Notes: generated by a model from the letters alone, not told the origin. A stretch of 64,000 nt of DNA from a virus (IMGVR_UViG_3300027806_000035:1-64000), one strand, 5' to 3'; counted from the stretch's first letter, positions 3,515-54,748 are shown. A program made the numbers and translations.

Positions 3515-4121
3515 TTGGTTGGTCACTTTCAATACCGAATTGGTGAGAGTTGAGCAAATCCCTTAAGCCCTTCAAGAGGGCTATGTCTTCTTTCTCAAGA
3601 GCGTGCTCATTTTCAATCATGTAGACAATGATGCGAATCAACTCTGCTGGACTTGCATTGCTTTTGACAAGATTGGCTCGCCTACTGATAACTCTGACAT
3701 TATCGGGGGTATATCCACGCTGATTGTTAATCCTGTCCAGACTAGCAGAGCTTGAATTAAGGCTACTATTGCGGGGGCCGGTGCCAGTTCCATCGGTAAT
3801 TTTGATGCCACGAATGGGGCAAACTTCAGGAATCACAATGTCATCAACCGTTAGCGTGAACTCAAGGCCAAACTTGTTGGCTCGTTGCCTTGCTGCGTAC
3901 AAGAGTTTCAGTCGCGGATCAATTCTCTTATACCGCTCAATTGCACACTTCGGGCACATGGAAACTATTGACGTTCCTAGAATGGTCTTTCTTTTGTTTT
4001 TCGCTGGATAAAAGTCAACAACTGGCAAGAGTTGCTTGCAATCTGAGCAAGGTGCCAACAGAGGGCATGGCGTATCTATTTTTGTTGTCCAACCAGACGG
4101 GAATGTTCGCACGTTGTTCAT
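3507..4121 (-). CDS. HNH (homing) endonuclease with N-terminal Zn finger
   Basis: CSDC..CPKC; CPIRG; SLDRINNQRGYTPDNVRVISRRANLVKSN; lower GC than flanks. Confidence 0.8.
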   Translation of the reverse strand: MNNVRTFPSGWTTKIDTPCPLLAPCSDCKQLLPVVDFYPAKNKRKTILGTSIVSMCPKCAIERYKRIDPRLKLLYAARQRANKFGLEFTLTVDDIVIPEVCPIRGIKITDGTGTGPRNSSLNSSSASLDRINNQRGYTPDNVRVISRRANLVKSNASPAELIRIIVYMIENEHALEKEDIALLKGLRDLLNSHQFGIESDQPNG

Positions 4122-14041: not shown

Positions 14042-14485
14042 TCACCTTTTTTGAGGAGGCCACCACGGCAGCAGATACAGGTACGTCCGCTGCTGGTCTG
14101 TTGGAGCCGGCTGCCACCATGTCACAGCTCCCGGCAGGCGTGAACAACGGTCGTCCACCAGAACGCCAGCCTTGACAGCTGCATCGAGCACGGCACCTGA
14201 CAAATTGTCAACATCGCTGCGCCCGTGGCCATGAAACTCGATGCCGACCAGGGCATGATCCAGCGGCTCGCGCCCCTGCCATTGCTGCTGGAGGCTGGCC
14301 TGGGAGGCCGCCAGCCAGGCCCTGTACTTCGGTGAGGTGAACGATCGGCCCTGCCCCTGCCGTGGCCGCTCCTTGGGCTGCAGGGGGCCATCCAGAGAGA
14401 GGGTGAGCCAGTCAGGCCCATTCGGGCCGGGCTGCAGCATCATCATCATCAGCGCCTGAATCCCCTGCCCTGGCGGCACGCGCAT
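14042..14485 (-). CDS. rusA: RusA-family Holliday junction resolvase
   Basis: PKERPR; DVDNLSGAVLDA; GVLVDD. Confidence 0.85.
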   Translation of the reverse strand: MRVPPGQGIQALMMMMLQPGPNGPDWLTLSLDGPLQPKERPRQGQGRSFTSPKYRAWLAASQASLQQQWQGREPLDHALVGIEFHGHGRSDVDNLSGAVLDAAVKAGVLVDDRCSRLPGAVTWWQPAPTDQQRTYLYLLPWWPPQKR

Positions 14486-15170
14486 TGGCGCAATGACTCA
14501 AAAGGTTCAACGCAAGAATCCTAGACTTAGCCGGACCGAAACGCTCAAACAAGATCTTGCCAGCTTCCTCAAGCTGCAAGTTAGTCGGATTCTTGAATAG
14601 CTTGATCGGCTTGAGAGCTTGCTTCTTTTCCGCATAACCCTCAGCGTAATAGCATTCCTGTATGTTTTTATACTTTCTTCCTGGGCCTACATCAGCAAGC
14701 AGTGACGGCTGCATCTGGTATAGATACTTAATAGTGCGATAGTCAATAATCTTATCGTACTTTCTTTTTCTTCTATCTTTCGCAACAGATGCAATCAAGC
14801 GCCTGAACTCAAAAAACTCTGGCGGAAAGTCGAATGACTTGTCTTCTTTCCTGAGCCAATCAATAAACTTATAGGCATACTTATTTTTTGATCTTTCTTT
14901 CAGTGCTGACTTTGTTACAGCAATGATAAATTGATTTAGATTCTTGACGCCAAGACCGTAGTAAACACTATGGATAAAGTCTTTAATGCCCTTAAGCTTG
15001 ATTTCCTTGTTGCGAAGCGTTGTGTATCCATGATGAACATTGGCTTCAACGATTCGCAGCATTGCCGCAAAAAAAGGCTCCGAATCTTGACCGGCCATAA
15101 CCGTGCCAAGGTGGAGCCTTGCATCTTCTACAAGCAGAGCACCGTAATACGGATCATTTCTGCTCAGCAT
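14412..15170 (-). CDS. Hypothetical basic, AT-rich protein
   Basis: 252-aa ORF tiling the operon. Confidence 0.55.
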   Translation of the reverse strand: MLSRNDPYYGALLVEDARLHLGTVMAGQDSEPFFAAMLRIVEANVHHGYTTLRNKEIKLKGIKDFIHSVYYGLGVKNLNQFIIAVTKSALKERSKNKYAYKFIDWLRKEDKSFDFPPEFFEFRRLIASVAKDRRKRKYDKIIDYRTIKYLYQMQPSLLADVGPGRKYKNIQECYYAEGYAEKKQALKPIKLFKNPTNLQLEEAGKILFERFGPAKSRILALNLLSHCANARAARAGDSGADDDDAAARPEWA

Positions 15171-15204
15171 GTCTCGCTACCGATTCAACAGCAGCTTACA
15201 TGGA

Positions 15205-15600
15205 TCAGAAGGGAATCTCTTCCTCTTCGGGTTCGGGGCGGCTTCCCTTGCTGCCAGACGGAGCGGAACCTTTCGGCTTGTCGCCACCAATGAAGGTGAA
15301 TTGCGAACAGTTAAGAGTCATGGAAGAATTTTTCTTGCCATCCTTCTCCCATTCATCAAGGCCAAGCTCTCCTTGAACAAGGATTGCACTGCCCTTCTTG
15401 ACGTGATCTCCGATGGTTTGAGCACGCTTGCCCCACACTTCAACGCGAAGCCACAGAGGAGCAGGCTTCGGGCCGTTCTTTTTGCCATAGCGATCAACAG
15501 CAAGGCTGAATTTCGCCACTGCTGATCCGCCATCAAGGAAGCGCAGTTCAGGGTCGTTTCCGACGCGACCACTGAAAGTACAGGAATTAAAAGAAGCCAT
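15205..15600 (-). CDS. ssb: Single-stranded DNA-binding protein
   Basis: N..GRVGNDPELR..KFSLAV..WGK.A..KG..V.G.L; acidic EEEIPF tail. Confidence 0.95.
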   Translation of the reverse strand: MASFNSCTFSGRVGNDPELRFLDGGSAVAKFSLAVDRYGKKNGPKPAPLWLRVEVWGKRAQTIGDHVKKGSAILVQGELGLDEWEKDGKKNSSMTLNCSQFTFIGGDKPKGSAPSGSKGSRPEPEEEEIPF

Positions 15601-15618
15601 GCGGTAGGGGCTGGTTGG

Positions 15619-16020
15619 TCAAAGTGACAATTCATTATCGTCGGCCATGGGGCCTTTGTCAATAGGCTCCTCCAAGCTGTAAGCCTTCGACAGATCAACG
15701 TTGAAGCTGGGTGCAGCTCCAAGCTTTGGCGGAAGCGTAAAGAAAGCGTCCCGCAGGTAGATGTGACAGCACTTGATTCCGTCCTTTCTGGTTCTTGGCA
15801 TGATGCGGCTGATGGAGCCGCTCATTGTCATGTACTCGTTTGCGCGAACGAATTCAAGGATTATGCTGATCTTTCGGCCGTAGAAACGCCCCTGAGCGTA
15901 GTGAACTTCGCGATTGCCAAGAGAAACCTTCAAGACAATATCAACATATCTGCCATATTCGCCGTCTTTTCCCTCTGGGTCTTCAACGACGTAGCCATCA
16001 AAAGTCGCTGTTACTGGCAT
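15619..16020 (-). CDS. Second, divergent SSB-like OB-fold protein
   Basis: T.DGYV..DPE..G; FYG.K; M.GSI; acidic DDNELSL tail. Confidence 0.55.
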   Translation of the reverse strand: MPVTATFDGYVVEDPEGKDGEYGRYVDIVLKVSLGNREVHYAQGRFYGRKISIILEFVRANEYMTMSGSISRIMPRTRKDGIKCCHIYLRDAFFTLPPKLGAAPSFNVDLSKAYSLEEPIDKGPMADDNELSL

Positions 16021-16792
16021 CTTGTAGTGGTTGAATGAGTTTGCGCGGGAATGAAGAGTCTTCAAGTTCTTGGTAGATCTTGAAGCGCTCAATGAATTCG
16101 TCGGCAAATTGACGAATTTTCTCAATCGGCTCAATGAAAAGCGTTGGCTCGCACCAGTCGTAGCAAGAACAGATGACGATCTGCTCGATTGGCGGATAAT
16201 TGCCGGTTTCCTTTGCGGCAATGTTATGAGCAAGAGCGTAAGCGCTCATTTGAATGAAGCCTTCGTGATAGCGGCTCCTGGGCTTGCGCTTTTTTTCAAC
16301 GCCTTCCTCAAGATGCGATCTTGAAGTTTTCCAGTCCCATACGGTGTATTTCTGGTTCCACCAAAGCCTGAGGTCAGGCTTGCCAGCAAAACCATAAGGA
16401 CAGAACAGCTCCTCCTCAATGATCAGGTTTGATTCAGCGAGCCCTGGCCAAAGTGGACAGTTGCCGTCGTTTGACTCCTTGATCTCCTTGAGCAAGGGTT
16501 CAAGGTAGTGCATGTAAGCGCCGATATTGTGATGCGTCAGCTCTTCCATGGAAGGTGACTCGTCACTGTGCCTTACGTGCTCACCCGTCAGATACCCTTC
16601 TGCCATGTAGTGGATGATGGTTCCACGACGGCAGGCTTTCTCAAGAATCTCTTGGTGGTTGGGCTCTCTTTCCTGCCAGATTGCAAGTCCTTTTGCCTTG
16701 GCAGGATGGAAGATGGGCATTGTTTTGCCAAGGATCGTGGAAATCCTTGCATACTCAAGCCCATCCCTTTCGTAAAACTCGTGATCAGACAT
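15998..16792 (-). CDS. PD-(D/E)XK exonuclease (recombination)
   Basis: RISTILG; RGTIIH; E..L..FAGKPDL..DWKTS; Q.SAY. Confidence 0.85.
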   Translation of the reverse strand: MSDHEFYERDGLEYARISTILGKTMPIFHPAKAKGLAIWQEREPNHQEILEKACRRGTIIHYMAEGYLTGEHVRHSDESPSMEELTHHNIGAYMHYLEPLLKEIKESNDGNCPLWPGLAESNLIIEEELFCPYGFAGKPDLRLWWNQKYTVWDWKTSRSHLEEGVEKKRKPRSRYHEGFIQMSAYALAHNIAAKETGNYPPIEQIVICSCYDWCEPTLFIEPIEKIRQFADEFIERFKIYQELEDSSFPRKLIQPLQDASNSDF

Positions 16793-17558
16793 TGAGCGCG
16801 TCCTTCGCAGCCGACTGGAGATCAGAAATAGAAGGAGCTTGAACGTCCTCGCCTACCTCAATGATCTGTTCACCCTTGCTGTTTTGGCCGGCATTGAGCT
16901 TCGCAGCGTATTCAGGCGTGAGATTGGCAATAAGTTTCGACCTGATCCCAGGCTTGACATCTTCCCACTTCCTGATCCCAAGGATTGCCCTCAGGGCAAG
17001 AGCACCAGTCCTGTTGATGCCAGCAGACTCAAGCTTGTCGGTAAGCGTGGAAACAAACTCAGCGTTGACGCGATCAATGTCAGAGACTTGAACGGCGTTG
17101 GGTGGCGCATCCTCAACAGAGCGCTGATCCTTGTCGTACAGGGCAAGGCCGAACGGATTGCCGAATGTCATGGCAGCACGTTTCAGTGCATCGGTTGCCG
17201 CCTCCTTGATTGCAGATTCATGGGCCAGGCCAAGATCGGCGTCAATGCCGTGACCAGCGCCGACGCCTTCGCGGCTAACGCCAAGAACAGTCAGCTTGAT
17301 GCGGGCGATGTAGGAAACACCCCAGCCATCGCGTTGATCGCGACCAATCTTGCGAGCCTTTTCGCTGACGGCGCGAATCTCAACAAGATCCTGATGCCAA
17401 GCATCAAAGCCGAAGATACGATTGAGTTCGCGGATAACCCACCAACCTTCAATGTACGAAAGGTTGCGACCGCTCTGCTGACGCTGCTTGACGACCTGTG
17501 ACGACAGTGCTCCTTTTAGCTCGTCGTTCTGGGCGTCCGTAAAAATTGCCGATTTCAT
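16785..17558 (-). CDS. Rad52/Rad22-family (Sak-like) single-strand annealing protein
   Basis: LSYIEGWWVI.E.NRIFGFD.W; REGVG.G; E.A.KEA.TDALKRA..FGN.FGL.LYD. Confidence 0.92.
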   Translation of the reverse strand: MKSAIFTDAQNDELKGALSSQVVKQRQQSGRNLSYIEGWWVIRELNRIFGFDAWHQDLVEIRAVSEKARKIGRDQRDGWGVSYIARIKLTVLGVSREGVGAGHGIDADLGLAHESAIKEAATDALKRAAMTFGNPFGLALYDKDQRSVEDAPPNAVQVSDIDRVNAEFVSTLTDKLESAGINRTGALALRAILGIRKWEDVKPGIRSKLIANLTPEYAAKLNAGQNSKGEQIIEVGEDVQAPSISDLQSAAKDALNV

Positions 17559-44200: not shown

Positions 44201-45084
44201 TTAGCATCGCCATCATCACCCTTTGGAATGAGTTGAGCTTGGTACTGAGCCCTGATGACAGGATTTATACGATAAGCGAGATTGTTGCCGATTGGAGAAT
44301 AAACGCCAAAAGCAGCATTTGAACTGGGTCTGACGACAGAACAGAAGTCACCAGCCCATGCTCTGTCAATAGAGCGAGCTGCAAAAACATCGTCGCCACC
44401 CTGATTCTCAGCATTCCCCGGATCCAGATTTGCAAGTCTGCCGGCAATTCTGTCCTCAGACGTGATTCTGCCGCCATCCGGCCTGAAGTAGATGACGTAC
44501 GAGGATCCTAATTCTGTTCCTGGTCCAATGTTATACGCATTCAGAAGATTATTGCCCAGAGCAAAACCATTAGGGTCAAGTTCAGCAATTCCGCCATCGC
44601 CAGCAAGGAAAACAGCACGGAGTAGTTGCTGACCATTGCTTGTTTGCAGCTGACTCCACAGTAGATCCATGTTGACGCGGATGCCACCGTAGGTTTCGCC
44701 GTCAATCACCTCCTTCAGAGCGAAAACCATCGGCATCGGCTGGCCGATCGCTGCCGGCTGCTGCAGCGAATCGAAGCCCTCCCGAGGGGCGTAGCGGCGC
44801 ACATCGCTGACCGTCTTGCCCAGGCGCTCGCTGCTCTGGATCCGGGCTGGCTCCACCTCCCCAGGCCGGAAGAACTGGGCGATGATCGTCAGCCCCACGG
44901 AGATCGCCGAGGCGACCAGGGAGATCACAGCCAGCGTTCCCAGGGGCTCGCCGGCCACAACGGCTGGTCGAGGCCCTTTGGCAGCCCTCTTGGCAGCCTC
45001 TGCGTAGAACCGCTTCACCTCCTCCGGCCGGATCCCCAAGATGCGACCGAGGCGATAGTGCATCGGCAGGAGATGAGGCTTCAC
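41227..45084 (-). CDS. Central tail fibre / baseplate hub (lambda J-like)
   Basis: About 1285 aa; LQQPA.IG.P.P.VF..GG.RVN..LLWSQ; GTG start overlaps upstream stop. Confidence 0.75.
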   Translation of the reverse strand: MKPHLLPMHYRLGRILGIRPEEVKRFYAEAAKRAAKGPRPAVVAGEPLGTLAVISLVASAISVGLTIIAQFFRPGEVEPARIQSSERLGKTVSDVRRYAPREGFDSLQQPAAIGQPMPMVFALKEVIDGETYGGIRVNMDLLWSQLQTSNGQQLLRAVFLAGDGGIAELDPNGFALGNNLLNAYNIGPGTELGSSYVIYFRPDGGRITSEDRIAGRLANLDPGNAENQGGDDVFAARSIDRAWAGDFCSVVRPSSNAAFGVYSPIGNNLAYRINPVIRAQYQAQLIPKGDDGDAKVVCQIDDVAAAQRDKTRAVYSTRSGFISGDASAIGNTLTYVLDKSSDVETDFSKAFNAQAWDVNVEVERIGGSGTTVNEYRSTNSTTGLRSTAFSGSLSALEAGIQWLDSGDQVVPNPIVTVTQQSGKRVTLSTRLQYNASGLTNDQKKALLYSRFKITFVNGAVDDDEEPSTYYRVNVQQETDVEANYDVDFINQTFSGNYSSASTIYVVESTADSRETVQATLNKGELYSEPAADIASAIAGKQEQWDDAIQIGSLYKFGTALVVCTGRSPEGEVFTSEANFSDPGSQDPRPGQSIEATFTVVRPGVIDLTTISDLRVNANVGSNIDRYTATNFPHLFRVSIATITTTRPTRLIEIIIRSTLGIRINNLCNFRDTISYGAADNKACLDYRGDTISKGSTLKQFNYTSGTVTTAQMRYSFFRIRVRPSSSTGEWITFPECYCIRGINQQSQFNTVRLQFPTVEQWEIEFEPLSGWEIRSGNASGAYVLIEDKRQANGNLITRAHESVVLQVYGKEGNGSDVGVVNDGDDPFRLPAVHKDQAQGYGNLGYGYTDGVQFVDEFGALAETFVFPEVSSTAEGGPEHEIVSVTEIVQNETLPLYPDMGIVGLNLLPGNTFQQLGQLSGYANAGYPEARRLLNDMTPGPTHLFPDIALELFTNPVYGTGDQVSDEQIDIDSFRESAQWCYDNRYFCDLVYLPTNIKEWVAKKAEEHLLYFMEIDGRYVLRPMFPYVEGDRTNWNAPVDIKGVFGLLQMRSFSFSAIDEESRRSIKVSGRWREERKLSTITNPGIFPVEREILLREAGALSSEDDPIQSFDLSDFATNEKHLIDYLKMKARIRRLSTHGITMELTQDSLLAPIKPGDYVQVPVEVTFFNEYKTGIVKSDGLVISVTDIEPGTYQAMIWDGILESEVTESELTINEDGTASPSGIIFVIKESGSDYKTYRILDIDPAENSGFIANAIETPTDENGRLILSQNWGGLSTDENWVIEK

Positions 45085-45488
45085 TTTACAAAACGGCGAA
45101 AGTTGAACTTTGGCAGTCCGGGAGTTGTAAGAGGAAGCCAAACAACACCTTTCCTTGTGTGAATTGTAACGACACCAAGATTGCCGCTATTTTCAAGTAC
45201 CGTAGAGATCCCGAGCTTTGGGTGTCCGCCGGCTCCCCTGTTCCGCGTCATTGCTACACAGCCCTGCTCAACAACATCAGTTGGACAGGTGTGATGATTC
45301 CAAGCCGTCTCCAGTGAACCCCAGAGTCCAGCAGCGGCCATGTCCATCCAACGAGGATCAATCTCTGGCCTGTAGATTCCGGCTTCATCGAGAAGGGTGA
45401 AACAGAGGAGCAAGCAATCTGCGGCTTTTCCTTCTTTCGGGTCAGCCCAGAACTCATGCTTCAGTCCAAGATACTGATGAAGGCTCAT
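45081..45488 (-). CDS. NlpC/P60-like tail tip assembly protein
   Basis: YLGL.H..ADP..G.AADC; position between the L-like and J-like genes. Confidence 0.7.
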   Translation of the reverse strand: MSLHQYLGLKHEFWADPKEGKAADCLLLCFTLLDEAGIYRPEIDPRWMDMAAAGLWGSLETAWNHHTCPTDVVEQGCVAMTRNRGAGGHPKLGISTVLENSGNLGVVTIHTRKGVVWLPLTTPGLPKFNFRRFVK

Positions 45489-45973
45489 ACGGAAATGGTT
45501 CCAGATGTTGGCAGCGCTCCCACAAGCGACTGTGAAAGCGGTCTACCACCAACTGTAGCGTTGACAGTATCAAGTGGACTGGCAAGCTGAAGAACAGATT
45601 GACCCGGCCTGCCCATCTCAACCGCACCCTCAACCCTGCAGGACCACAGCATCTTGGTCAGCTGCGTAAGTTCTTGATCGGTTTCAGTGTCAATCTCTAC
45701 TGAAGTTACCTCAACCAGCCACTTACTGGAGTCCGCTTGCCAGAAGATGTTTTGGACAAGGGTGTTGGCTGGACATACGATCGCACCCCTGCTGCGTTCT
45801 CCGCCCTGCTTGCCGCCACCACCAGAAACGCCAAGAGGGGCAAAGTCGTAATCAACTCCACCGTAAGTGCGCGTTTCGTTAATGAAATAGTTTTGGTACG
45901 CATAGGGGAGGTAGCCCCCTCCCCCGCGTTCCTTGAAGCGGATGTAGCTGACAATTGCGAATTCCCCTTTCAC
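45485..45973 (-). CDS. Minor tail protein (lambda L-like)
   Basis: YQNYF..Y.FAP..L.L.SPLD.V..VGALP.SG. Confidence 0.7.
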   Translation of the reverse strand: MKGEFAIVSYIRFKERGGGGYLPYAYQNYFINETRTYGGVDYDFAPLGVSGGGGKQGGERSRGAIVCPANTLVQNIFWQADSSKWLVEVTSVEIDTETDQELTQLTKMLWSCRVEGAVEMGRPGQSVLQLASPLDTVNATVGGRPLSQSLVGALPTSGTISV

Positions 45974-45977
45974 TGAA

Positions 45978-46010
45978 TCAGAGCCCCAGGCGCTTACGTG
46001 TCTTCATGCT
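45978..46010 (-). repeat. Displaced copy of tape-measure 3' end (SMKTRKRLGL-stop) = predicted TnpB guide
   Basis: AGC ATG AAG ACA CGT AAG CGC CTG GGG CTC TGA directly after the right-end TCAA; same peptide as 47348-47380. Confidence 0.9.
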
Positions 46011-46170
46011 TTGACTTCCAGCCACCATACAGATGGTAGCCTCCTTCTACGCTGTGCATGGGAATGCCTCAGCGATCGGGTGGGTTGACGCTTCACAGCC
46101 TGCCGCCACCGAAAGGGTGGACTGATGCACGGCTCCACGCCCGTTTTGACTCTCCGCCAGTCCGGCGGCG
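45991..46170 (-). ncRNA. Predicted omegaRNA (reRNA): scaffold overlapping tnpB 3' end plus guide
   Basis: AAACGGGCGTGGAG..TGAAGCGTCAACC.., hairpin GCTACCAT-CTGT-ATGGTGGC, then GGAAGTCAA; boundaries approximate. Confidence 0.65.
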
Positions 46171-47255
46171 AGGATGTTCAAAGCAGCGTTGATGTCGCGG
46201 TCGTGAACCGTTCCGCAACTCGGGCACTGCCACTCCCGAATCGACAGCTCTTTCTTGCCGTCGTGATGGCCGCAAGCTGAGCAGACCTGACTGGTAGGGA
46301 GCCATCGGTTGATGACAACCACCTGCCTGCCATATTGCTCAGCCTTGGACTCCAGCAGAGCCCTGAACTGCCGCCAACCCGCATCGGCAATCGAGCGGGC
46401 CAGCTTCTTGTTCTTCAGCATCCCCGAAACGTTCAGGTCTTCCAGCACCACCGTTTGGTTTTCACGGATGATGCGGGTCGAGAGCTGATGCAGGAAGTCG
46501 AGGCGCCGATCAGCAGCCTTGGCGTGCAGCTTGGCTACCCTGCGTCTAGCGAAAGCCAGACGGTTAGAGCCCTTTTCCTTGTGCTTCAGGTTGCGCTGCA
46601 GCCGCCGCAGCCGCTTAAGCGCCGAGCGCAGAAACCTCGGCGGAGCAATCTTTTTGCCATCTGAGGTAACGGCGAGGGATGTCAAGCCCAAGTCTATGCC
46701 AATCACTTTGCCGTTTTTCGGCATTTGACTTGGCTCGACTTCTACAACAAAGCTTGCGAAATAACGTCCGCTGGAATCACGAATAATTGTGACACTGGTT
46801 GGCGATGACGGCAGTGAGCGACTCCAAATAATTGGCACTGAACCAATTTTTGCAAGAATCAAACGATTATTTTTTACGCGAAATGCATTGGATGTAAAAC
46901 GAGCTGACTGGGTGCCGCACTTTTTCTTGAAGCGCGGCGGGCCAACCCCACTGCCCCTGCGCTTTCCTTTTAGGCTATTCCACCAATTACGATAGGCTCT
47001 GTCAAGGTCGCGCACAGACTGCTGAAGTATCGTATTACTTGGTTCGGCAAGCCACTTTCTTTCAGGAGTCTGCTTCGCTTGAGTAATGCAAAGCTTGGCT
47101 AAAATTGGATAGGTAACTTTTTGACCAGCACTGTATAGCTCGCGGCTTTTGGCTAGAGCGTCATTCCATACAACGCGAGCGCAGCCAAAGGCCTTGCCGA
47201 TCGCACCTATTTGGTGCGGGTGTGGATACAGGCGAAACCGGTAGCGTCGCTTCAT
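46047..47255 (-). CDS. tnpB: RNA-guided endonuclease TnpB
   Basis: [10 protein letters not shown]; RuvC GIDLG / LEDL / DRDINAA intact; CSAC..CPSC zinc finger. Confidence 0.95.
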
Positions 47256-47260
47256 CAGTC

Positions 47261-47270
47261 AATTATACCA
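47261..47270 (-). promoter_or_regulatory. Extended -10 promoter for tnpB (probably leaderless)
   Basis: TGGTATAAT, 6 nt upstream of the tnpB ATG. Confidence 0.65.
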
Positions 47271-47347
47271 CGCGGGGCCACTCCTACCCACCCCCGGCTT
47301 CCCGTCGCCTTGGCGTATGGTCGCTTAATTGCCCGACAAGTATATAA

Positions 47348-50300
47348 CTACAGGCCGAGTCGTTTTCTGGTCTTCATGCTATCGGCAAGTTCACGAATCG
47401 TCTGGTTCCGGGCCACCTTAGCAGTACGGGCATTAGATGCCTCAAGCTGCTCGGGAGTGACGAAATCGTACTCGTTGACGCGAGTGGTTTCGTACTTGAT
47501 CGGAGGCAGTTCTTTCGGGCTGCTGGTGACACGCTCCAGTCGGTCGATCTCCCTGGTCGTTTCACTCCGCTGATACGGAACGGCCCGACCATAGTTGCCG
47601 GTGTAGATGGTGTCACTAGATTCACCATCACCGCTCTCCATGCTGCTCGCGGCGCGACGGGTATAGCGGCCGATCGAAGGGGCACTGCCGCCCTTGTCGT
47701 CAAGGCCGGGGACGTACAGCTCGTCGTTGGGAATGATCGTGCCTGGGCGGTCGGGAACCCACAGCTCAGGGCCGTTCTCGCCGATGATCGCCGGGTCGTA
47801 GGGATCAGGGCGACCGCCCGAGGCATAGCCAGGCAGGCCGAGGTTGCCGAGGTTGAGCATTTCGCCGGTAAAGCCGGGGAGCGACGACTTCGGCTTGCTG
47901 CCAAACAGACCTGACAGTCCACCGCCAGCGCCAAACATTCCAGTGATAGAGCTGATGGATCCGAAGATTGAAGCTGCACCCATCAGGGTGTTGTAAGCCC
48001 CGCCCTTGCGGATCATCTGAGCGCCGCCAACGCCCATCGCGATGCTGCTGATCGCTTGCAGGCCGATGCCAACTGTTTTCTGGAACTTGGTGACAGAATC
48101 TGACATCTGAGTGCCGAGATCCTGAACGCTATCTGTCGCTTGCGCGGCTGCCTGGCCAAGCTGACCCAGCGATTCGGCCGTCTGATTTCCAGCTGCAGTA
48201 GCGGGACCATAGGCAGCGCCAACAGCCTCGCGCATTGCATCGTAAGCCTCAAGCATTCTCCTAGCATTTTCCTCAGCATTGAACTGAGGAGCTGGCTGAA
48301 CCTGGGACACAACAGAGCCAATTTCGGAAAGAAGCTTGCTGGTGATCGCAGGGTTTAGGCCGGGCTCTCTGCCTGGGCCGTGGAAGAAGTTCTGCCCCTC
48401 GGCTCGCAGGAAGTCGCCCTGCATCATATTGCCGTACTGGCTAACGCCTTTGAAATACAAGCGGCCATTGATGTCCTTGATCGACTGCTCAAGAAGTGCG
48501 GGATCAAGAAGCTCGGCCTTGACCTTGTTGAACAGGTCGGCGCCGTAACGATTTGGATTGACGACTTGGGCGCGACTCAGGCCAAAATTTGGTGCATACT
48601 GGCCGGCTTGGGTTACGACATCCACCAGATTCGATGGATACTGACCGGAGCGTGAGCGGCTGAGGATGTTCGCGAAAACATCAGTTCTGCCCAGCGGATC
48701 GGATCCACCATATTCGCCAATTGCAGTATTGACTGCAGCCGCAATTTCTTCATCCGTAAGACGCAGCGCCTCCTTGATGCTTCTGCCGGTCATCGGCAGA
48801 TCAGGCCCGCCAACGCCCGTGAACTGTCCAGTTGCTCCACTGGACTGAGCGTCCCGATACCACTGACCGCTCTTGGGGGGCTCCGTTGCCGGCGACCTGC
48901 CGCCTGGACCTGGGACAATCCCGTTCGCGGGAGCCGTGGCCGGGGCCGGAGTGGCGCCGCGAGCCGCCGCAGCCGCAGTCTCAGCCTTTTTGACAAGTTC
49001 AATGGCAGCCTGAAGAATCTTGTCGGTATTGTCCTTGACAGCAGTAATTGGCTGAAGCAGGGGGTTCTGCTCAGGTTTGATGCCTAAGACATCGGAGAGA
49101 TTCTTGAACAGCTGATCCTGCAGGGGGCGCAGCGTAAACTCAAGGAGGACATCAAGAGTCCGATCTGCAACGCCTTCAGCGAAACGCTGAACAGATTCCA
49201 GCAGGTTCCCGCCTTTCAGCAGTTCTTTATTGAGCTGGATAAACGAGTCGGTCCAGCCACTTGCAATATCCCTAAGTCCATTAAGAACCTTGAGCTTGGC
49301 ATTCAAGTTGTCAAGCGCTTTTGCGTTTCTGAGGATTTCCTCCTCCTGTCTTGGGTTGATGCCAAGCCCGCCACGGCTGTTGATGATTTGCAGCCACTTA
49401 TCATATTCGCTGACAGGGAGCAGGAGCGCAGAAATCTCACCCCTCGCCTGAGTAATGGAGTTGCTGAGCTGGTCGTTTGACTGGGTGTAAAACTCAATTG
49501 TTGGCCGCAGCTTTTCAAACTCGACAGTAACTTTTTCCGCAGTGGCAATTAAGCCGAGCAGTTCGGGTGTCAGCTTGAAATCTGGCCGCCTTGCAAGAGA
49601 GCTGACAAGGCTTGTGTAAGAGCCTTGAATGACGCCGATGGCAATTGAGAAATCGTCTGCGACAAGGCCAAGTGCCTTCCTGGATCTAGTAAGAGAGTCG
49701 TCAAGCTCTTTGAATGGACCGGTGGCAAGATCGCTTATGCGACCAATAAATTCATTGAAGTTGCCAGCCTGACCAGAATTGACAAGTGAAGTTTCAAGGT
49801 CGAGCAGGGTCTTCTGAAGCTGATCCCCGCGTGCCACGGCCTGCGTTACGCCAGCAGTAGAAACACTCCGAGTGGAGACAGACGGAATCTCCCTGAGCTT
49901 TGGAGGAGCCTTTGTTGTCTCAATCGCTTTCAGGTTTTCGCCCGCGAGCTTCAGATTTTCTGTGATGTTGTCGAAGATTGTTTGATTTGCCGTGAGTACG
50001 TCTTGATAGACCTGCTTGCCAGGATTCTCCTTCGCATTGACCTTTGCGCTTTCAAGGAAGCTGCTCTGCCTTGCCTGCATGACAAGGAGTTCGTTCTTGA
50101 TAACCTCTGCCTTAAGCGAGGCAATTTTCTTTTCGGCTTCAAATGTATTCAGGGCCGCATCTTCGTTTCTGCGTGCAACGCTTCTGTTGATCTCCTGAAT
50201 TTTTTCGGCGGTGCTGATATTCAGGTCCGAAACCCTCTTGGCAACCTCGGCCTTGTACTTTTCAAGCTCAACCTGTTGGTTGCTAATCGCAATCTCAAAC

Positions 50301-53300
50301 TGCTTACGGCGTTGCTCGATCTGATCCTGGGCCGAAAGCTGAGCGCCAAGGTAGGTGGTTACAGCGTCCGCAAGGCTTTGCGCAAGCTCGTCGCCAGCCA
50401 GCTCATTGCGAACCTCAAGCGCAGCATTCTTAAACTGCTGCTCCCTGATCTGACCCTGCTTGACAAGGATCTCAAGCTCTTTCTGGGCGTTTTCTTGACG
50501 AAGCTGGGAGATCCTGTCTTCAACGCCACGGCGAATATCCTCGATCTGCTTTTCGTAGTCACGACGCAGCTCAAAGGACTGACGATCAAGATCTTCCTGC
50601 TCGCGCTTGATGGCGTTGGCTTGTTGCTTGAAGCCCTTCAGGATGTCCGCTCCTTCGTTCCGCTTATTGAATACTTCGAGATCGCGTTGAGCTGTGTCGC
50701 GGCGGGTTTCTGCGTCCCTGATCGCCTTGTCGCGTTGCTCCTGTGGCTTGAGCTGTGGCGCAGGAGTGGATCTTACAAGTCCAGCGGTGATTTCAGCCAA
50801 ATCTTTAGTCGGAATCCCAAGAATTGAACCAGCTCCACCGCCTCCAAGCGGGCGGCCAATCAACCTCTCAAGAAGTCCAGATCCCCTTGGTGCGCCTGCT
50901 TTTTCAGCGGCAGCCTGCAACTGCCTGTTTGCAGCCGCTCTAGCTTCTGGTGTGGCTGCAGCAAAGGCATTCTCAAATCTTTTTTCCGTCCCGCTTCTCT
51001 CCAGTCCTGATGCAATAGCATTCAAGATGTCAGTAAGCGGCCCAGCAACAAGAAGCTGGATCTGTACGCCAAGGTCGGCCATTGCACGCTTCAGGCGATC
51101 ACCAGCATCAGCGGCTTCACGAAGCTTCGTAGCTCCATCGACCCCGAGCTTGTTATTCAGTTCACCCTGGATAATCGAGTAGGCAGCGGTCTTATTCCCA
51201 GCCTCAATCAGATTGCCAATCAGCTTTTCCTGGCCACGGCTTGCAAGCAGGCCGGAATCCTTGATCTGCTCAAAGTTGCCGACCAGATCACGCAGCATGT
51301 TGCCGGTGTCCTGGGTCGCCTGCATCAGCATGTCCACCTGGGAGCCGATCGCCGTGCCAGCAAGCGACAGGCCGAAGCCCAGCGTGCCGCCGGCCAGGCC
51401 ACCGAAGAAGCCGCCCAGACCGCCACCAGCAGCGGCTCCGGCGCCCTGACCGAACAGGAGGGGGAAGGCGCCACCGATCAGGCCTTCCCCGACCGCCTGG
51501 CCGCCTCTCTGGCCGAACCTGCGGGTCAGGAAGTCAGCCCCGGTATCCCGGCGAGCAATCTGGTCGTCAACCTTGTTCAGAACTTTGGTCAGCTGATCAA
51601 AGCTCGCGTCCGTCATCTTCACGCCTTCGCGTGTTTCAGACAGCGCCTGAGACAGAAGCTGCAGCTGCTTGATGCTGGCGCCTGACATATCAGCCAGATC
51701 CTTCAGGCCAAGAAGCTGATCAGCATTGCCGCGAGCAGCATTTACGCGGCCCTCAAAGTCGCCAGGATCCGGTCCGGCAGGAGGGGCTGGAGGATTCGGC
51801 CCACGACCGCCGCCGCCAGCAGACCGAACAGCGGAAGAGGTGAAATTGGCAGCAGATTGAACGCTGAGCGCAAAGTCGCGAATCGGCTTTGTAGCGGAAT
51901 TCAGTGCTTGCTGCAATTTTTCAAGCGGGGATCCAATAGCGGCACCGGCTTCGCTACCAAGGGTCTGCGTCTTACCAAAAGCAAAGATTGACGAAAGCGG
52001 TGATCCAATGCCGCGCCCCTGAATCTGATTGGCGGAAAACAGGGGATTAGAAGGTGGAGCGCTCTGAAGAGTTGGTAGCTTACCGCGAATTCTTTGGTCG
52101 CGACTCATCAGAATACCAGGGTTCAGAATTGATGACTCGCCCGCTTGTCCGGCAACCGGAGACATGGGTGCCGTTACGAACCTGGCAGAGCTGAACTTGT
52201 TGGCACTCTTGACGAAGGCGTCATCAATCTGCTTTTCAAGAAGCCCCGGAAGGTTCCTGAAAATTCGCTCAAGCTTCATTTCCGGGAATACGTCCTGGAA
52301 CGTACCCCTTGCGCTCGACTCCCTCAGTATTTCGGTTGGGAAGTTCTGGAGCCCAACCGCATCAATTCGCCTTCTGTATTTAGCCGAATCAATTGTCAGG
52401 TCAGCAATGGATTGCGAAAGTGTTCCATAGTTAGCTCCAAGGCTCGGACGCTTCACCGCAAAATCAAACTGACCTGCGATTCCAGTCTGCGGATTTCTAG
52501 TAGGAAGGTTTAGGGAGGCAGTCGCTATGCCCTCTCTTGCCGTTTTAACGGCTTTCCCAACTGCATTCGCGCCAGCACCAAAGGCCTTGCTGAAGGCCGC
52601 TTCAATAGCAGAAGTACCCTGCTCAAGCCTGCTAGTAGTGGCATTGATGATGTCACTGATTAGCATAAGAATGAACTTGGGAGGGCTGTTCCTGCCAAAG
52701 ACCTTATTGATCGCTTTTGTTGCAGCAGACGCAAACTTGGTTGCCGCCGCAGCAGCGCTGGATGAACCGCCGGCAAGCTTGTCGGCAAAAGTGCTTACAA
52801 CGCTCGCGCCAGTTTCAGCGGCGCCAGAGACTGCGCCCTTGAGGCCGCCAGCACCAGTTCCTGTAGCTTTCCCGCCAACAGAAGCGTTGAACGCACCGAT
52901 GATGTTGCTCAGGGCTTGCTCGCCACTGCGACCGCCACGGAAGACCTTGGCGGCAGTGTCTGCACGTCCGAGATCACCAAGAATCGAGGTCAGGGTTCCG
53001 GTATCGCGCTGCTGCCCACGGCCAAGCCTTTTTGCAAGCTGCTCGGATGCTTTTGACTCAGCCTGCGCATTGGCCGCTCTTTGCTTCTCTAGCGCAAGCA
53101 GTTGCCTTGTTCCGTTTAGCTCTTCATCAAGAATATCCAGGCTCTTCGCGGAAATCTCAAACGTATCAGCCTTTGCGGCATTGAGTGTATTTTGGAGCTT
53201 GACAAGGGTGTCACCAATCTCAACGCCTTTTGCCTGCGCTCCGGCAAGTTTCTCCTGCAAAAGGAGGCCAGAGGCGAGGATGTTAGCGAGTCGCTTTGGC

Positions 53301-54748
53301 GCATCAATTGGTGAGACGTCAGTGGTTCGGATATTTGAAGGCCTGATTTGTCCAGCCTGGCCGGCTCCAGCCTTGGTGGACACTCCACTGGAAAGCTCCT
53401 CCACCTGAGCTAATGCACTTCTCCAGTTTATTCCCTTTGCTGCAAGTTTCTGCGCCTCAGTTACTGGCGTTGGCGTTCCACGTCTATTCAGGCGCTCAAG
53501 CGACATTCGCTGGCGGTCAATTTCAGCTGTCTGACGCTTCGAGGCCGTTAGATCCCTTTCGGCAAGCGAGGAAGTTGCCTTGTCAAGCTTTTGGCGAAGC
53601 TCAAGTTTTTGGTTTTGACTGAGAAATGCTTGGTCAACACGAGTCTCAAGAGCCGCAATTCGATCAAGCTGCAGTTCAATCTTATCATAGTATCCCTGCT
53701 TCTTGATGATTGATTTCGGATCATCAAGCCTGGAGGCAGGGCCAAGCTGCGGCTGAATCTTCATACTTTGGCCACGCAGGCCAAATCCGCTCATTTCCTC
53801 GCGAACAGATGCAATCCGCTCCTCAAGAGCCCGGTACTCATTGGAGATAACAGGAACAAGAGAGCGCAGTCTTTCTAGGTAGCCAAGGTATGAGTCCATT
53901 GCGGCCTCGCTTCTTGTCACCGTGTCACCCATTGCAAGCGCGGAAGCAATGAGCTTGCGGGAGCCGGCAAGATTGGCTTCTGATGTACCTTGACCAAAAT
54001 TTTGACGCTGAGCCTGAGGAGATAAACCAAAGGCGATAGCCCGAAAGCGTTGCTGTTCGGCTTCTGCGAGCTTCTTGTTCGCCCCCTCTACGGCAACACT
54101 GAATCTATTGAAATCGGCAGACGCAATTTTAACGTTATTTGCAACCAGCGAAAGAGCGGATGCCTGCTCTTTGAGCTGACTTATGCTTGCGTCAAGGCCT
54201 ACGTCTTTGCCAAGCCCGCCAGTTACGAGTTTCTTGCGGAGATCTCCAATGCGGAGATAGGCATCAGCAAGGCCCTGAAGCGCGTTTACGCTTGCCTGGT
54301 TTTTCATGGCAAGGCCAAGGGCTCTGTTAAGCCCGATCGCCCCGGTCTGGGCCTCCCTCTGCCTCTGTGTTAGCTGGGCTGTTTTGCTGTTGAGTTCATC
54401 AATAGCGCTGGCCGCGTCAAGAATATCTTGCTGTAACTTTTTATAGGTTTTTGTTTCTGGATTTTTCAGTCTTGACAGTCTTTGCTGCGCCTTTTCGATT
54501 TTATCAAAGTTTTTTTGAATTTCAGCTCCAGCCCCAGCAATACCCTTTCCAGCATCGTCCGAAATACGGTTAAGCGCAGTCATGCTTGACTGCAGCTTTT
54601 CCACATCACGCACAGCTCTTGACGCGGATACGTCCAGCGGGGAGCTATTTAGCCTATTAACAATGTCGTCAAGCTTGCTAACTCTTTCAATCAGCCTGTC
54701 AACAGCTGAGCGGCCAGTTACCAGAAGGTCAATTGAAGCGCCAGCCAT
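47348..54748 (-). CDS. Tape measure protein with SleB/Hydrolase_2-like peptidoglycan hydrolase domain
   Basis: 2466 aa, Ala/Gln-rich coiled coil, Gly-rich TM-like stretch, GE..V..I.SR..YP..VV.Q.GQY, GENGPEL.VP; lies between chaperone and tail-tip genes. Confidence 0.92.
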   Translation of the reverse strand: MAGASIDLLVTGRSAVDRLIERVSKLDDIVNRLNSSPLDVSASRAVRDVEKLQSSMTALNRISDDAGKGIAGAGAEIQKNFDKIEKAQQRLSRLKNPETKTYKKLQQDILDAASAIDELNSKTAQLTQRQREAQTGAIGLNRALGLAMKNQASVNALQGLADAYLRIGDLRKKLVTGGLGKDVGLDASISQLKEQASALSLVANNVKIASADFNRFSVAVEGANKKLAEAEQQRFRAIAFGLSPQAQRQNFGQGTSEANLAGSRKLIASALAMGDTVTRSEAAMDSYLGYLERLRSLVPVISNEYRALEERIASVREEMSGFGLRGQSMKIQPQLGPASRLDDPKSIIKKQGYYDKIELQLDRIAALETRVDQAFLSQNQKLELRQKLDKATSSLAERDLTASKRQTAEIDRQRMSLERLNRRGTPTPVTEAQKLAAKGINWRSALAQVEELSSGVSTKAGAGQAGQIRPSNIRTTDVSPIDAPKRLANILASGLLLQEKLAGAQAKGVEIGDTLVKLQNTLNAAKADTFEISAKSLDILDEELNGTRQLLALEKQRAANAQAESKASEQLAKRLGRGQQRDTGTLTSILGDLGRADTAAKVFRGGRSGEQALSNIIGAFNASVGGKATGTGAGGLKGAVSGAAETGASVVSTFADKLAGGSSSAAAAATKFASAATKAINKVFGRNSPPKFILMLISDIINATTSRLEQGTSAIEAAFSKAFGAGANAVGKAVKTAREGIATASLNLPTRNPQTGIAGQFDFAVKRPSLGANYGTLSQSIADLTIDSAKYRRRIDAVGLQNFPTEILRESSARGTFQDVFPEMKLERIFRNLPGLLEKQIDDAFVKSANKFSSARFVTAPMSPVAGQAGESSILNPGILMSRDQRIRGKLPTLQSAPPSNPLFSANQIQGRGIGSPLSSIFAFGKTQTLGSEAGAAIGSPLEKLQQALNSATKPIRDFALSVQSAANFTSSAVRSAGGGGRGPNPPAPPAGPDPGDFEGRVNAARGNADQLLGLKDLADMSGASIKQLQLLSQALSETREGVKMTDASFDQLTKVLNKVDDQIARRDTGADFLTRRFGQRGGQAVGEGLIGGAFPLLFGQGAGAAAGGGLGGFFGGLAGGTLGFGLSLAGTAIGSQVDMLMQATQDTGNMLRDLVGNFEQIKDSGLLASRGQEKLIGNLIEAGNKTAAYSIIQGELNNKLGVDGATKLREAADAGDRLKRAMADLGVQIQLLVAGPLTDILNAIASGLERSGTEKRFENAFAAATPEARAAANRQLQAAAEKAGAPRGSGLLERLIGRPLGGGGAGSILGIPTKDLAEITAGLVRSTPAPQLKPQEQRDKAIRDAETRRDTAQRDLEVFNKRNEGADILKGFKQQANAIKREQEDLDRQSFELRRDYEKQIEDIRRGVEDRISQLRQENAQKELEILVKQGQIREQQFKNAALEVRNELAGDELAQSLADAVTTYLGAQLSAQDQIEQRRKQFEIAISNQQVELEKYKAEVAKRVSDLNISTAEKIQEINRSVARRNEDAALNTFEAEKKIASLKAEVIKNELLVMQARQSSFLESAKVNAKENPGKQVYQDVLTANQTIFDNITENLKLAGENLKAIETTKAPPKLREIPSVSTRSVSTAGVTQAVARGDQLQKTLLDLETSLVNSGQAGNFNEFIGRISDLATGPFKELDDSLTRSRKALGLVADDFSIAIGVIQGSYTSLVSSLARRPDFKLTPELLGLIATAEKVTVEFEKLRPTIEFYTQSNDQLSNSITQARGEISALLLPVSEYDKWLQIINSRGGLGINPRQEEEILRNAKALDNLNAKLKVLNGLRDIASGWTDSFIQLNKELLKGGNLLESVQRFAEGVADRTLDVLLEFTLRPLQDQLFKNLSDVLGIKPEQNPLLQPITAVKDNTDKILQAAIELVKKAETAAAAARGATPAPATAPANGIVPGPGGRSPATEPPKSGQWYRDAQSSGATGQFTGVGGPDLPMTGRSIKEALRLTDEEIAAAVNTAIGEYGGSDPLGRTDVFANILSRSRSGQYPSNLVDVVTQAGQYAPNFGLSRAQVVNPNRYGADLFNKVKAELLDPALLEQSIKDINGRLYFKGVSQYGNMMQGDFLRAEGQNFFHGPGREPGLNPAITSKLLSEIGSVVSQVQPAPQFNAEENARRMLEAYDAMREAVGAAYGPATAAGNQTAESLGQLGQAAAQATDSVQDLGTQMSDSVTKFQKTVGIGLQAISSIAMGVGGAQMIRKGGAYNTLMGAASIFGSISSITGMFGAGGGLSGLFGSKPKSSLPGFTGEMLNLGNLGLPGYASGGRPDPYDPAIIGENGPELWVPDRPGTIIPNDELYVPGLDDKGGSAPSIGRYTRRAASSMESGDGESSDTIYTGNYGRAVPYQRSETTREIDRLERVTSSPKELPPIKYETTRVNEYDFVTPEQLEASNARTAKVARNQTIRELADSMKTRKRLGL

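Follow-up and report, generated by a model that had tools for sequence, protein, structure and literature searches.

A tnpB gene and its putative omegaRNA lie within the 3' end of a tape-measure-like gene in a 64,000-nt stretch of DNA from an uncultured freshwater cyanophage (positions 1 to 64000 of the IMG/VR record IMGVR_UViG_3300027806_000035, which totals 86,446 bases). We call this whole stretch the window; all coordinates are those of the window, and the features discussed are on the minus strand. Judging from the comparisons below, the locus is probably a TnpA-independent, RNA-guided homing cassette of a 'home-and-rescue' kind that came from an IS605-family element of freshwater picocyanobacteria. 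It reads as a tnpB/omegaRNA/right-end module whose left end is replaced by a spare gene end, and the most likely role of this derivative is RNA-guided homing or exclusion: TnpB would cut the native allele of the gene end and spare the recoded one, the outcome being copying or exclusion. The features are listed here; 'empty' denotes relatives without the element, TAM is the target-adjacent motif, and X11 is a public sequencing run with a second cassette-bearing lineage.

47348..54748, minus: tape-measure-like gene, 2466 aa (open reading frame call; homologues with PF10145/PF20155/PF01551)
47381..47385, minus: TAM position; CCGAT here and in empty relative L002, CTGAT in the 7 other empty alleles and the second cassette lineage
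47370..47380, minus: 11-nt stretch AGCATGAAGAC, equal to the start of the guide; proposed crossover or priming microhomology; in the X11 lineage, recipient-type letters until 47377, then donor-type
47348..47369, minus: putative rescue patch, 22 nt re-encoding (T)RKRLGL-stop; 8/8 codons unlike the native end
47256..47347, minus: left spacer, 92 nt, without the CAGTGGCTG box and without a subterminal hairpin; extended -10 TGGTATAAT at 47270-47262
46047..47255, minus: tnpB, 402 aa, intact; Pfam HTH_OrfB_IS605, OrfB_IS605 and Cas12f1-like_TNB
46011..46245, minus: putative omegaRNA scaffold and right end, overlapping the tnpB 3' end; terminal hairpin 46040-46021; ends GGAAGTCAA at 46011
45978..46010, minus: displaced native gene end and predicted guide template, directly past the right-end boundary; 28-31/33 against the gene ends of L002-L007, 33/33 against L022
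45485..45973, minus: next tail-module gene, 162 aa; GTG 4 nt past the displaced TGA, 3-4 nt in empty relatives

Two spellings of one gene end

The tape-measure-like gene ends on the minus strand with GAA CTT GCC GAT, then, across the junction, AGC ATG AAG ACC AGA AAA CGA CTC GGC CTG TAG (47380-47348), and its final 10 codons come from the cassette side. The downstream copy (46010-45978, minus) reads AGC ATG AAG ACA CGT AAG CGC CTG GGG CTC TGA, followed by TTCA and by GTG at 45973. SMKTRKRLGL-stop is encoded by both 33-mers. The two are identical at nt 1-11 and differ at 10/22 positions over nt 12-33 (12, 13, 15, 18, 21, 24, 27, 30, 32 and 33, counted along the guide); every change is synonymous, and 8/8 codons after nt 11 are changed, stop included. 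This arrangement had been described in a first-pass annotation made from the sequence alone, and it holds base for base. By hand calculation, a random 24 nt would encode TRKRLGL-stop with a probability of ~4e-10, so the two-copy observation is not due to chance. Random synonymous choice would give 3 identical codons and then 8/8 different ones with a probability of ~0.008 (also by hand), and for this reason the sharp switch at nt 11/12 between the two gene-end copies looks like a mosaic junction. The earlier proposal that a recoded C-terminus restores the protein finds support in the sequence, with one amendment: nt 1-11 of the left copy are better read as recipient-derived priming homology than as part of the patch.

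The C-terminus ..IRELADS[ML]KTRKR[LI]GL is near-invariant in ~30 tape-measure homologues, down to ~50% identity, some of them with tape-measure Pfam domains, which supports both the identity of the gene and the need to keep its C-terminus. The first-pass assignment of the upstream gene as a tape measure gains from gene order, size and homologues with PF10145/PF20155; a direct match of the 2466-aa protein was not obtained in PHROG or Pfam profile searches. The call of the next gene as L-like was not confirmed, as Pfam gave no match to it and PHROG a group of function unknown. A longer C-terminal consensus, ..VTPEQLEASN.RTAK.ARNQTIRELADS[ML]KTRKR[LI]GL (window 47348-47480), is near-invariant in ~30 giant homologues of 2,000-3,350 aa, and the last 33 nt of the gene are more conserved in DNA (28-31/33) than the flanking genes (76-94%). 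The strong conservation of this C-terminus hints at a functional C-terminal peptide, perhaps with a translation-coupling signal for the next gene.

Compared with the empty alleles, the cassette sits exactly 3' of (C/T)(T/C)GAT, and the 11-nt identity and the re-encoded gene end stand where the left end of an insertion sequence (IS) should begin. At 18 sites, the left end of the family to which this tnpB belongs reads TGAT followed by CAGTGGCTGTTCTGGGATACAAAC and then a hairpin, CCCGTCC-TTCA-GGACGG. In the window, the 125 nt between the TAM and tnpB (47380-47256) fold no better than shuffled sequences (z +1.6) and show no similarity to the family left end except for the -10 region just ahead of the tnpB ATG. 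This extended -10, TGGTATAAT, was read by eye 6 nt upstream of the ATG; as the promoter lacks a -35, a scan for consensus promoters did not pick it up. With a -10 so close to the ATG, the tnpB mRNA is likely leaderless, as in the IS family. The Y1 HUH transposase TnpA was not found either: its profile PF01797 is unmatched across the 86,446-base record, in which positive controls were detected and in which tnpB occurs once. Without TnpA in the record and without a left-end hairpin, TnpA cannot move the cassette. Because both were tested for and both are absent, the element is placed by its sequence outside the mobile IS200/IS605 class, as a derivative; the right-end feature of that class (hairpin, GGAAGTCAA and diverging flanks) is present. 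We also considered a left boundary made by alternative TnpA cleavage at an upstream TGAT in the donor, and rejected it, as neither hairpin nor TnpA supports it and the supposed unit has polymorphism inside it.

The patch spelling was found nowhere else in IMG/VR, in JGI metagenome contigs or in the phage itself. A degenerate pattern for the peptide-coding sequence, run over IMG/VR and JGI metagenome contigs, matched guide-type alleles exclusively, and blastn-short with the left 125-165 nt gave no match in the phage itself or in all the fetched loci.

The nuclease, its putative omegaRNA and the element family

TnpB, which the first-pass annotation had recognized, is intact. All three TnpB Pfam domains score above cut-off (E 1e-15 to 4e-31), and the protein aligns with ISDra2 TnpB (8bf8/8exa/8h1j) at E 1.7e-75 over residues 4-377. 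The RuvC D (IGIDLGL), E (VVLEDLN) and third D are retained together with a CxxC..CxxC zinc finger, and the alignment to 8bf8 preserves the residues opposite D191 and the 'TEHL' and 'HDRD' motifs. The hallmarks of TldR proteins, loss of RuvC residues and C-terminal truncation, were not seen in this full-length protein with its intact triad and zinc finger. For ISDra2 TnpB with its right-end omegaRNA, the cleavage rules have been established, with TTGAT as the TAM and a cut 15-21 bp from it (Karvelis 2021, PMC8612924). A TnpB on another contig (P0001) is 99% identical to ours, with 5 changes, all in the last 21 residues (382, 387, 390, 398 and 401), where the gene and the omegaRNA scaffold overlap; recombination with a host IS copy, or merging during assembly, may have produced it.

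The boundary on which the predicted guide depends was located by comparison. All 23 aligned family copies end with the hairpin and GGAAGTCAA, and immediately after TCAA their flanks lose all similarity; this shared right end fixes the boundary at 46011, so the guide template starts at 46010, with AGCATGAAGACACGTAAGCG. We take the guide to be the first 16-20 nt, 46010-45991. These 23 copies, diverging right after GGAAGTCAA, uphold the earlier statement that the DNA just past the right end occupies the guide position. From the tnpB stop to the guide there are 35 nt, ending in GGAAGTCAA. The last 240 nt have 95% column identity over the 23 family copies, above the whole-gene level, with conserved stems, and compensatory changes preserve the pairing of the terminal hairpin (ACCAT/ATGGT in the window, CCGCCG/CGGCGG or CCGGCC/GGCCGG in other copies). 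One contig of 249 nt from a metatranscriptome (X15) corresponds to 45997-46245 with 0 differences, that is, to the scaffold plus 14 nt of guide, and gives a weak hint that the omegaRNA reaches into 46010-45991 as had been claimed. The RNA runs X16-X20, with small shares, do not enter the evidence. The single-sequence fold of scaffold plus guide was not informative (z -0.67). An Rfam scan of 45000-48500 at E<=1 found no omegaRNA or intron family and one chance match to a long non-coding RNA. With up to 3 mismatches allowed, no match to the guide was found in five host-clade genomes, and a search with the exact right-end 27-mer found no further copy of this sub-type in IMG/VR or GTDB genomes. 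The stretch 46042-46230 resembles the host IS copies so closely that assemblies from short reads break within it and contigs of host type align to it (X2, X11), and depth and variant calls across it are a mixture of phage and host.

We fetched ~25 related elements with ~80% identical TnpB, located in freshwater Prochlorococcaceae genome bins and on four other viral contigs. This distribution points to an origin of the cassette in a multi-copy IS of the likely host clade, the freshwater picocyanobacteria. A divergent tnpA is present in most of the host copies. All 18 distinct family insertion sites read [C/T/G]TGAT and none CGAT, from which we take the TAM or target motif to be YTGAT, similar to the TTGAT of ISDra2 (PMC8612924). 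A distant blastn search of the GenBank phage collection matched only short stretches inside tnpB and brought up no relative of the locus.

Two variants within the family may be recorded. In the host copy L036 (1827-1970, minus), and also in the host copies L041 and L045, a 47-aa ribbon-helix-helix gene lies between the left end and tnpB in place of tnpA (Pfam RHH_1 at 20.7 bits, cut-off 20.5; NikA-like, E 3e-5), and it resembles the Arc repressor of IS605 elements (bioRxiv 10.64898/2026.09.24.754181). The viral contig L017 (1400-1500) has a tnpA-less family copy with an intact left end directly after a gene stop, the TGA of which is part of the TTGAT target; this landing is harmless and intergenic, unlike the in-gene position in the window.

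Empty alleles and a second cassette-bearing lineage

The element is missing from eight contigs of related phages, six from IMG/VR (L002-L007) and two from JGI metagenomes (L022 and L023). Their next gene is 77-94% identical to that of the window, and their flanks 76-94%. The empty alleles read ...GAACTTGC[T/C]GAT AGCATGAAGACACG[C/T]AAGCG[T/C]CTGGGGCTCTGA, then 3-4 nt, then GTG, with a canonical CTGAT ahead of the gene end in 7/8 of them. Every empty allele has a TAM followed by 15-20/20 guide matches. The relatives match the guide copy at 28-31/33 positions and the upstream copy at only 20-23/33; L022 matches the guide copy at 33/33 behind CTGAT, so that TGAT plus 20 nt is exact. Since the guide-type end is the one in use in the empty alleles, the downstream copy is the ancestral gene end. 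The first-pass annotation had anticipated both points, the ancestral look of the downstream copy and the occurrence of a TAM and a functional guide-type end just before the next gene in relatives, and the eight contigs agree with it. Natural variants among the relatives include the TAM CCGAT and synonymous changes at guide positions 3-15. In L002-L007 (positions 3990-4000), the stop and the next base (CTC TGA T) form CTGAT, a second potential landing or cutting site 33 nt downstream that every relative has. A search of IMG/VR with the tape-measure C-terminus returned the six empty contigs from that collection again and no further filled allele, near-identical records being possibly hidden.

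The occupied allele was also looked for in public runs through their Logan assemblies. The 1.58-kb stretch with both junctions is present at 98-100% of words in ten runs, each with its own study code (2017, 2019), some of which are perhaps the source of the window DNA. Contigs of 78,768 and 12,785 nt from two runs cross the whole stretch with 0 differences. These ten runs and two spanning contigs show that the duplication is not an assembly chimera, which had been named as a way in which it could be spurious. In run X2, a 151-nt contig at about 1/10 of the depth departs from the reference at 47373 and goes on AACGCGTAAGCGTCTGGGGCTCTGATCGGT; this contig represents an empty allele of L003 type that coexists with the filled one in that sample.

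Run X11 (2024), not flagged as a possible source of the window, contains a different lineage that bears the cassette. One contig starts within tnpB at 46432 and reaches position 47509 in the tape-measure gene, covering spacer, patch and TAM on the way. The listed differences are 5 in the tnpB part, none in the 22-nt patch or the spacer, one at 47377 that gives AGCCTG (Ser-Leu) as in the L005-type relative, and 14 in 47384-47474, one of which restores CTGAT. Allowing for 4 unprinted differences, the cassette has 6-10 differences over 949 nt and the adjoining 129 nt of tape-measure gene have 14-18; the cassette is thus <=1% diverged and the flanks 11-14%. The 100-nt flank is 86% identical to the window, as distant as separate lineages are among themselves. 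A near-identical cassette in two backgrounds that differ by >10% indicates that the cassette has moved horizontally between lineages at this site. The switch from recipient to donor falls between 47377 and 47369, inside the 11-nt identity and 4-11 nt past the TAM, and this position just 3' of the TAM is what break-induced copying would predict. Another contig of this run spans the right junction, with a list of differences that does not cover the guide. The X11 assembly is broken at 46177-46230.

Proposed homing cycle, alternatives and known systems

We propose the following cycle. In a mixed infection, the TnpB-omegaRNA complex would find YTGAT plus AGCATGAAGACACG in an element-free genome and cut 15-21 bp from the TAM, if the ISDra2 values apply (PMC8612924). 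The break would be repaired off the cassette-bearing genome by the phage Rad52-type annealase, SSB and RusA, or by host functions. At the left 3' end, recipient sequence would be kept, with its last 4-10 nt unmatched and trimmed, and the 11-nt AGCATGAAGAC would prime copying of the patch and the cassette. The right end would anneal in the native gene end and the next gene, both of which the donor still has past its right end. The resident gene would escape cutting because pairing breaks after 11 nt (positions 12, 13, 15 and 18) and, in this lineage, through its CCGAT TAM. The patch would preserve the essential, near-invariant C-terminus, so the drive would cost the phage little. Rivals too diverged for repair would simply be cut, which amounts to exclusion. 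Such a cycle would account for the first 11 nt not being re-spelled, for recipient polymorphisms up to the junction and for the guide travelling with the cassette. TnpB at a strong TAM tolerated single mismatches (PMC11043419), which makes sense of the multiple mismatches in the patch.

The genes for repair proposed by the first-pass annotation were found in part. A recombination module at 14144-17528 (minus) contains RusA (14144-14386), SSB (15292-15591) and a Rad52/Rad22-type annealase (17115-17528); as for the exonuclease, one of YqaJ type was not detected in the record.

Several points weigh against the homing interpretation. Cutting, interference and homing by TnpB are predictions from sequence alone. 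The X15 contig shows neither the ends nor the strand of the RNA, and DNA carry-over is possible. The case for the second lineage consists of Logan contigs from one run, with their differences listed in part. The 16/20 identity of the patch to the guide might still permit binding, and CCGAT is regarded as a dead TAM solely from its absence among 18 insertion sites. The collections scanned yielded no source sequence for the patch, and 6/10 of its mismatches lie past position 20, where immunity would not need them. Together with the unrelated 70-nt spacer, these six mismatches suggest an import of the patch from a diverged homologue outside the sampled set, rather than evolution or selection base by base.

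An alternative that we find unlikely is that the cassette is mainly a competition weapon, which depresses the yield of co-infecting relatives by cutting the end of their tape-measure gene, with copying rare or incidental; this would be RNA-guided competition by interference, comparable to the intron endonuclease of jumbo phages. Rival phages, and not the host, have matches to its guide, run X2 contains an empty rival next to the filled allele, and flanks that are 76-94% identical in the sampled relatives are perhaps too diverged for efficient repair in many pairings; a review cites such an outcome for homing endonucleases (PMC13565253). That copying took place at least once is shown by the near-identical cassette in another, diverged background, where the junction falls at the predicted break. 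Copying and competition are in any case compatible and not mutually exclusive. Nor is it probable that the cassette is an inert relic, left by a host IS605 that landed through TnpA, acquired the gene end by illegitimate recombination and lost its left end by decay, so that TnpB is inactive and ordinary phage recombination moves the cassette. Relics with tnpB alone are common, the left end and TnpA are missing here, and neither a source nor a mechanism for the patch was found. Against this stand the full-length reading frame with all catalytic residues, the omegaRNA scaffold and hairpin maintained by compensatory change, and a non-coding guide copy that is still identical to live alleles of relatives; moreover, the transfer junction lies 4-11 nt from the TAM and not anywhere in the flanks, and an inactive nuclease gives no reason for the maximal re-spelling of the resident copy.

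Two further explanations seem far less plausible. Phage TnpB derivatives that regulate transcription exist (10.1101/2023.11.30.569447), and the cassette lies inside a late tail operon, 37 nt ahead of the next gene, as would suit a domesticated, non-cutting regulator of the TldR type or an RNA-processing device acting on the tail operon, with the guide pairing to its own DNA by the next tail gene. We hold this to be very improbable: unlike TldR, this TnpB retains its RuvC D-E-D triad and zinc finger, the resident DNA that matches the guide is preceded by TCAA and not by a TAM, and the TAM-flanked resident copy is the mismatched one. Least credible of all is an assembly artefact that joined two phage strains, or a host IS copy and a phage contig. 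The omegaRNA region is indeed a multi-copy repeat shared with host IS that breaks contigs, as in X11, yet the independent 78,768- and 12,785-nt contigs span the stretch, ten runs contain it at 98-100%, and separate X11 contigs cross the left and right junctions.

The homing cassette that we favor resembles ISDra2-type TnpB (PMC8612924) in its domain set, triad and zinc finger, in the kind of TAM (TTGAT there, YTGAT here), in the flank-templated guide and in the scaffold that overlaps the tnpB 3' end. TnpB of such elements reinstalls the excised IS (PMC8612924; 10.1101/2023.03.14.532601). The cassette has neither TnpA nor a left end, so it would have no peel-and-paste transposition and no 'restorative' role after excision; in addition, it carries a replacement for the displaced gene end, and its predicted target is the orthologous site in other genomes rather than the sister chromatid. 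An IS605 TnpB also drives inheritance in multicopy plasmids, independently of TnpA, by cutting the IS-free copies (PMC11870625). That was an experimental case in E. coli with a complete IS at neutral plasmid sites, whereas this would be a natural phage case in a conserved virion gene, with a rescue patch and with the transposon ends lost. A 2026 review names co-infecting phages as a theoretical target of 'transposon non-restorative homing', and summarizes the free-standing homing endonucleases of the T4 SegF/SegG/MobE type, which bring about intronless homing and marker exclusion (PMC13565253). With these phage endonucleases the cassette shares a nuclease gene between conserved genes, and it would also share a conserved cutting target in relatives, a carrier made immune by site differences and spread by break repair. 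The differences are that recognition is predicted to be by a guide RNA and a 5-nt motif and not by a protein, that the target sequence is stored beside the nuclease gene, and that immunity would come from a duplicated, re-spelled gene end instead of point polymorphisms. IStrons, which are IS605 or IS607 elements fused to group I introns (PMC10690162), face the same problem of a TnpB element inside a gene that must work. IStrons fix it by RNA splicing and the cassette by a spare end in the DNA; the Rfam scan at E<=1 found no group I intron in 45000-48500.

Synthetic Cas9-based Cleave-and-Rescue and Home-and-Rescue drives, built in insects and thus in diploid animals, carry a recoded, cut-resistant copy of the targeted part of an essential gene. 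The cassette would follow the same logic as these engineered drives, and it is natural, based on TnpB, and viral. Phages and integrative conjugative elements with attP in tRNA genes likewise supply a substitute for the 3' end that they displace, and there the duplicate is near-identical and serves the integrase. In the cassette, the duplicate is unlike the original in nucleotides, and the displaced copy would programme the nuclease.

Two roles of TnpB are established, keeping its transposon from being lost after excision and driving IS copies through plasmid populations; its spread from phage to phage has so far been proposed in theory only. A full-text literature search found no paper on a phage TnpB cassette with a recoded replacement of a displaced gene part. 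Three features are absent from the literature searched: the loss of the transposon machinery with retention of the nuclease, the scaffold and the right end; the insertion inside a conserved essential gene; and the built-in recoded rescue copy, which follows the engineers' 'cleave/home-and-rescue' drive design. The system is tractable, in that TAM, guide, target, predicted immune allele and putative escape variants are all defined and filled and empty alleles coexist in public lake metagenomes. It opens to testing the questions of how RNA-guided nucleases spread among viruses, where phage mosaic junctions originate and how TnpB leaves transposons for other roles. We lean toward the wider view that transposase-less TnpB cassettes with recoded rescue patches form a distinct and recurrent class of natural RNA-guided phage gene drives, which would enter conserved, essential virion genes with the displaced end as their guide, spread by break-induced copying in mixed infections, and shape mosaic boundaries and competition. 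If this is true, the locus described here would be one where such spread is readable from environmental time series, in filled and empty alleles, in escape variants of the TAM and seed, and in junctions at the cut site.

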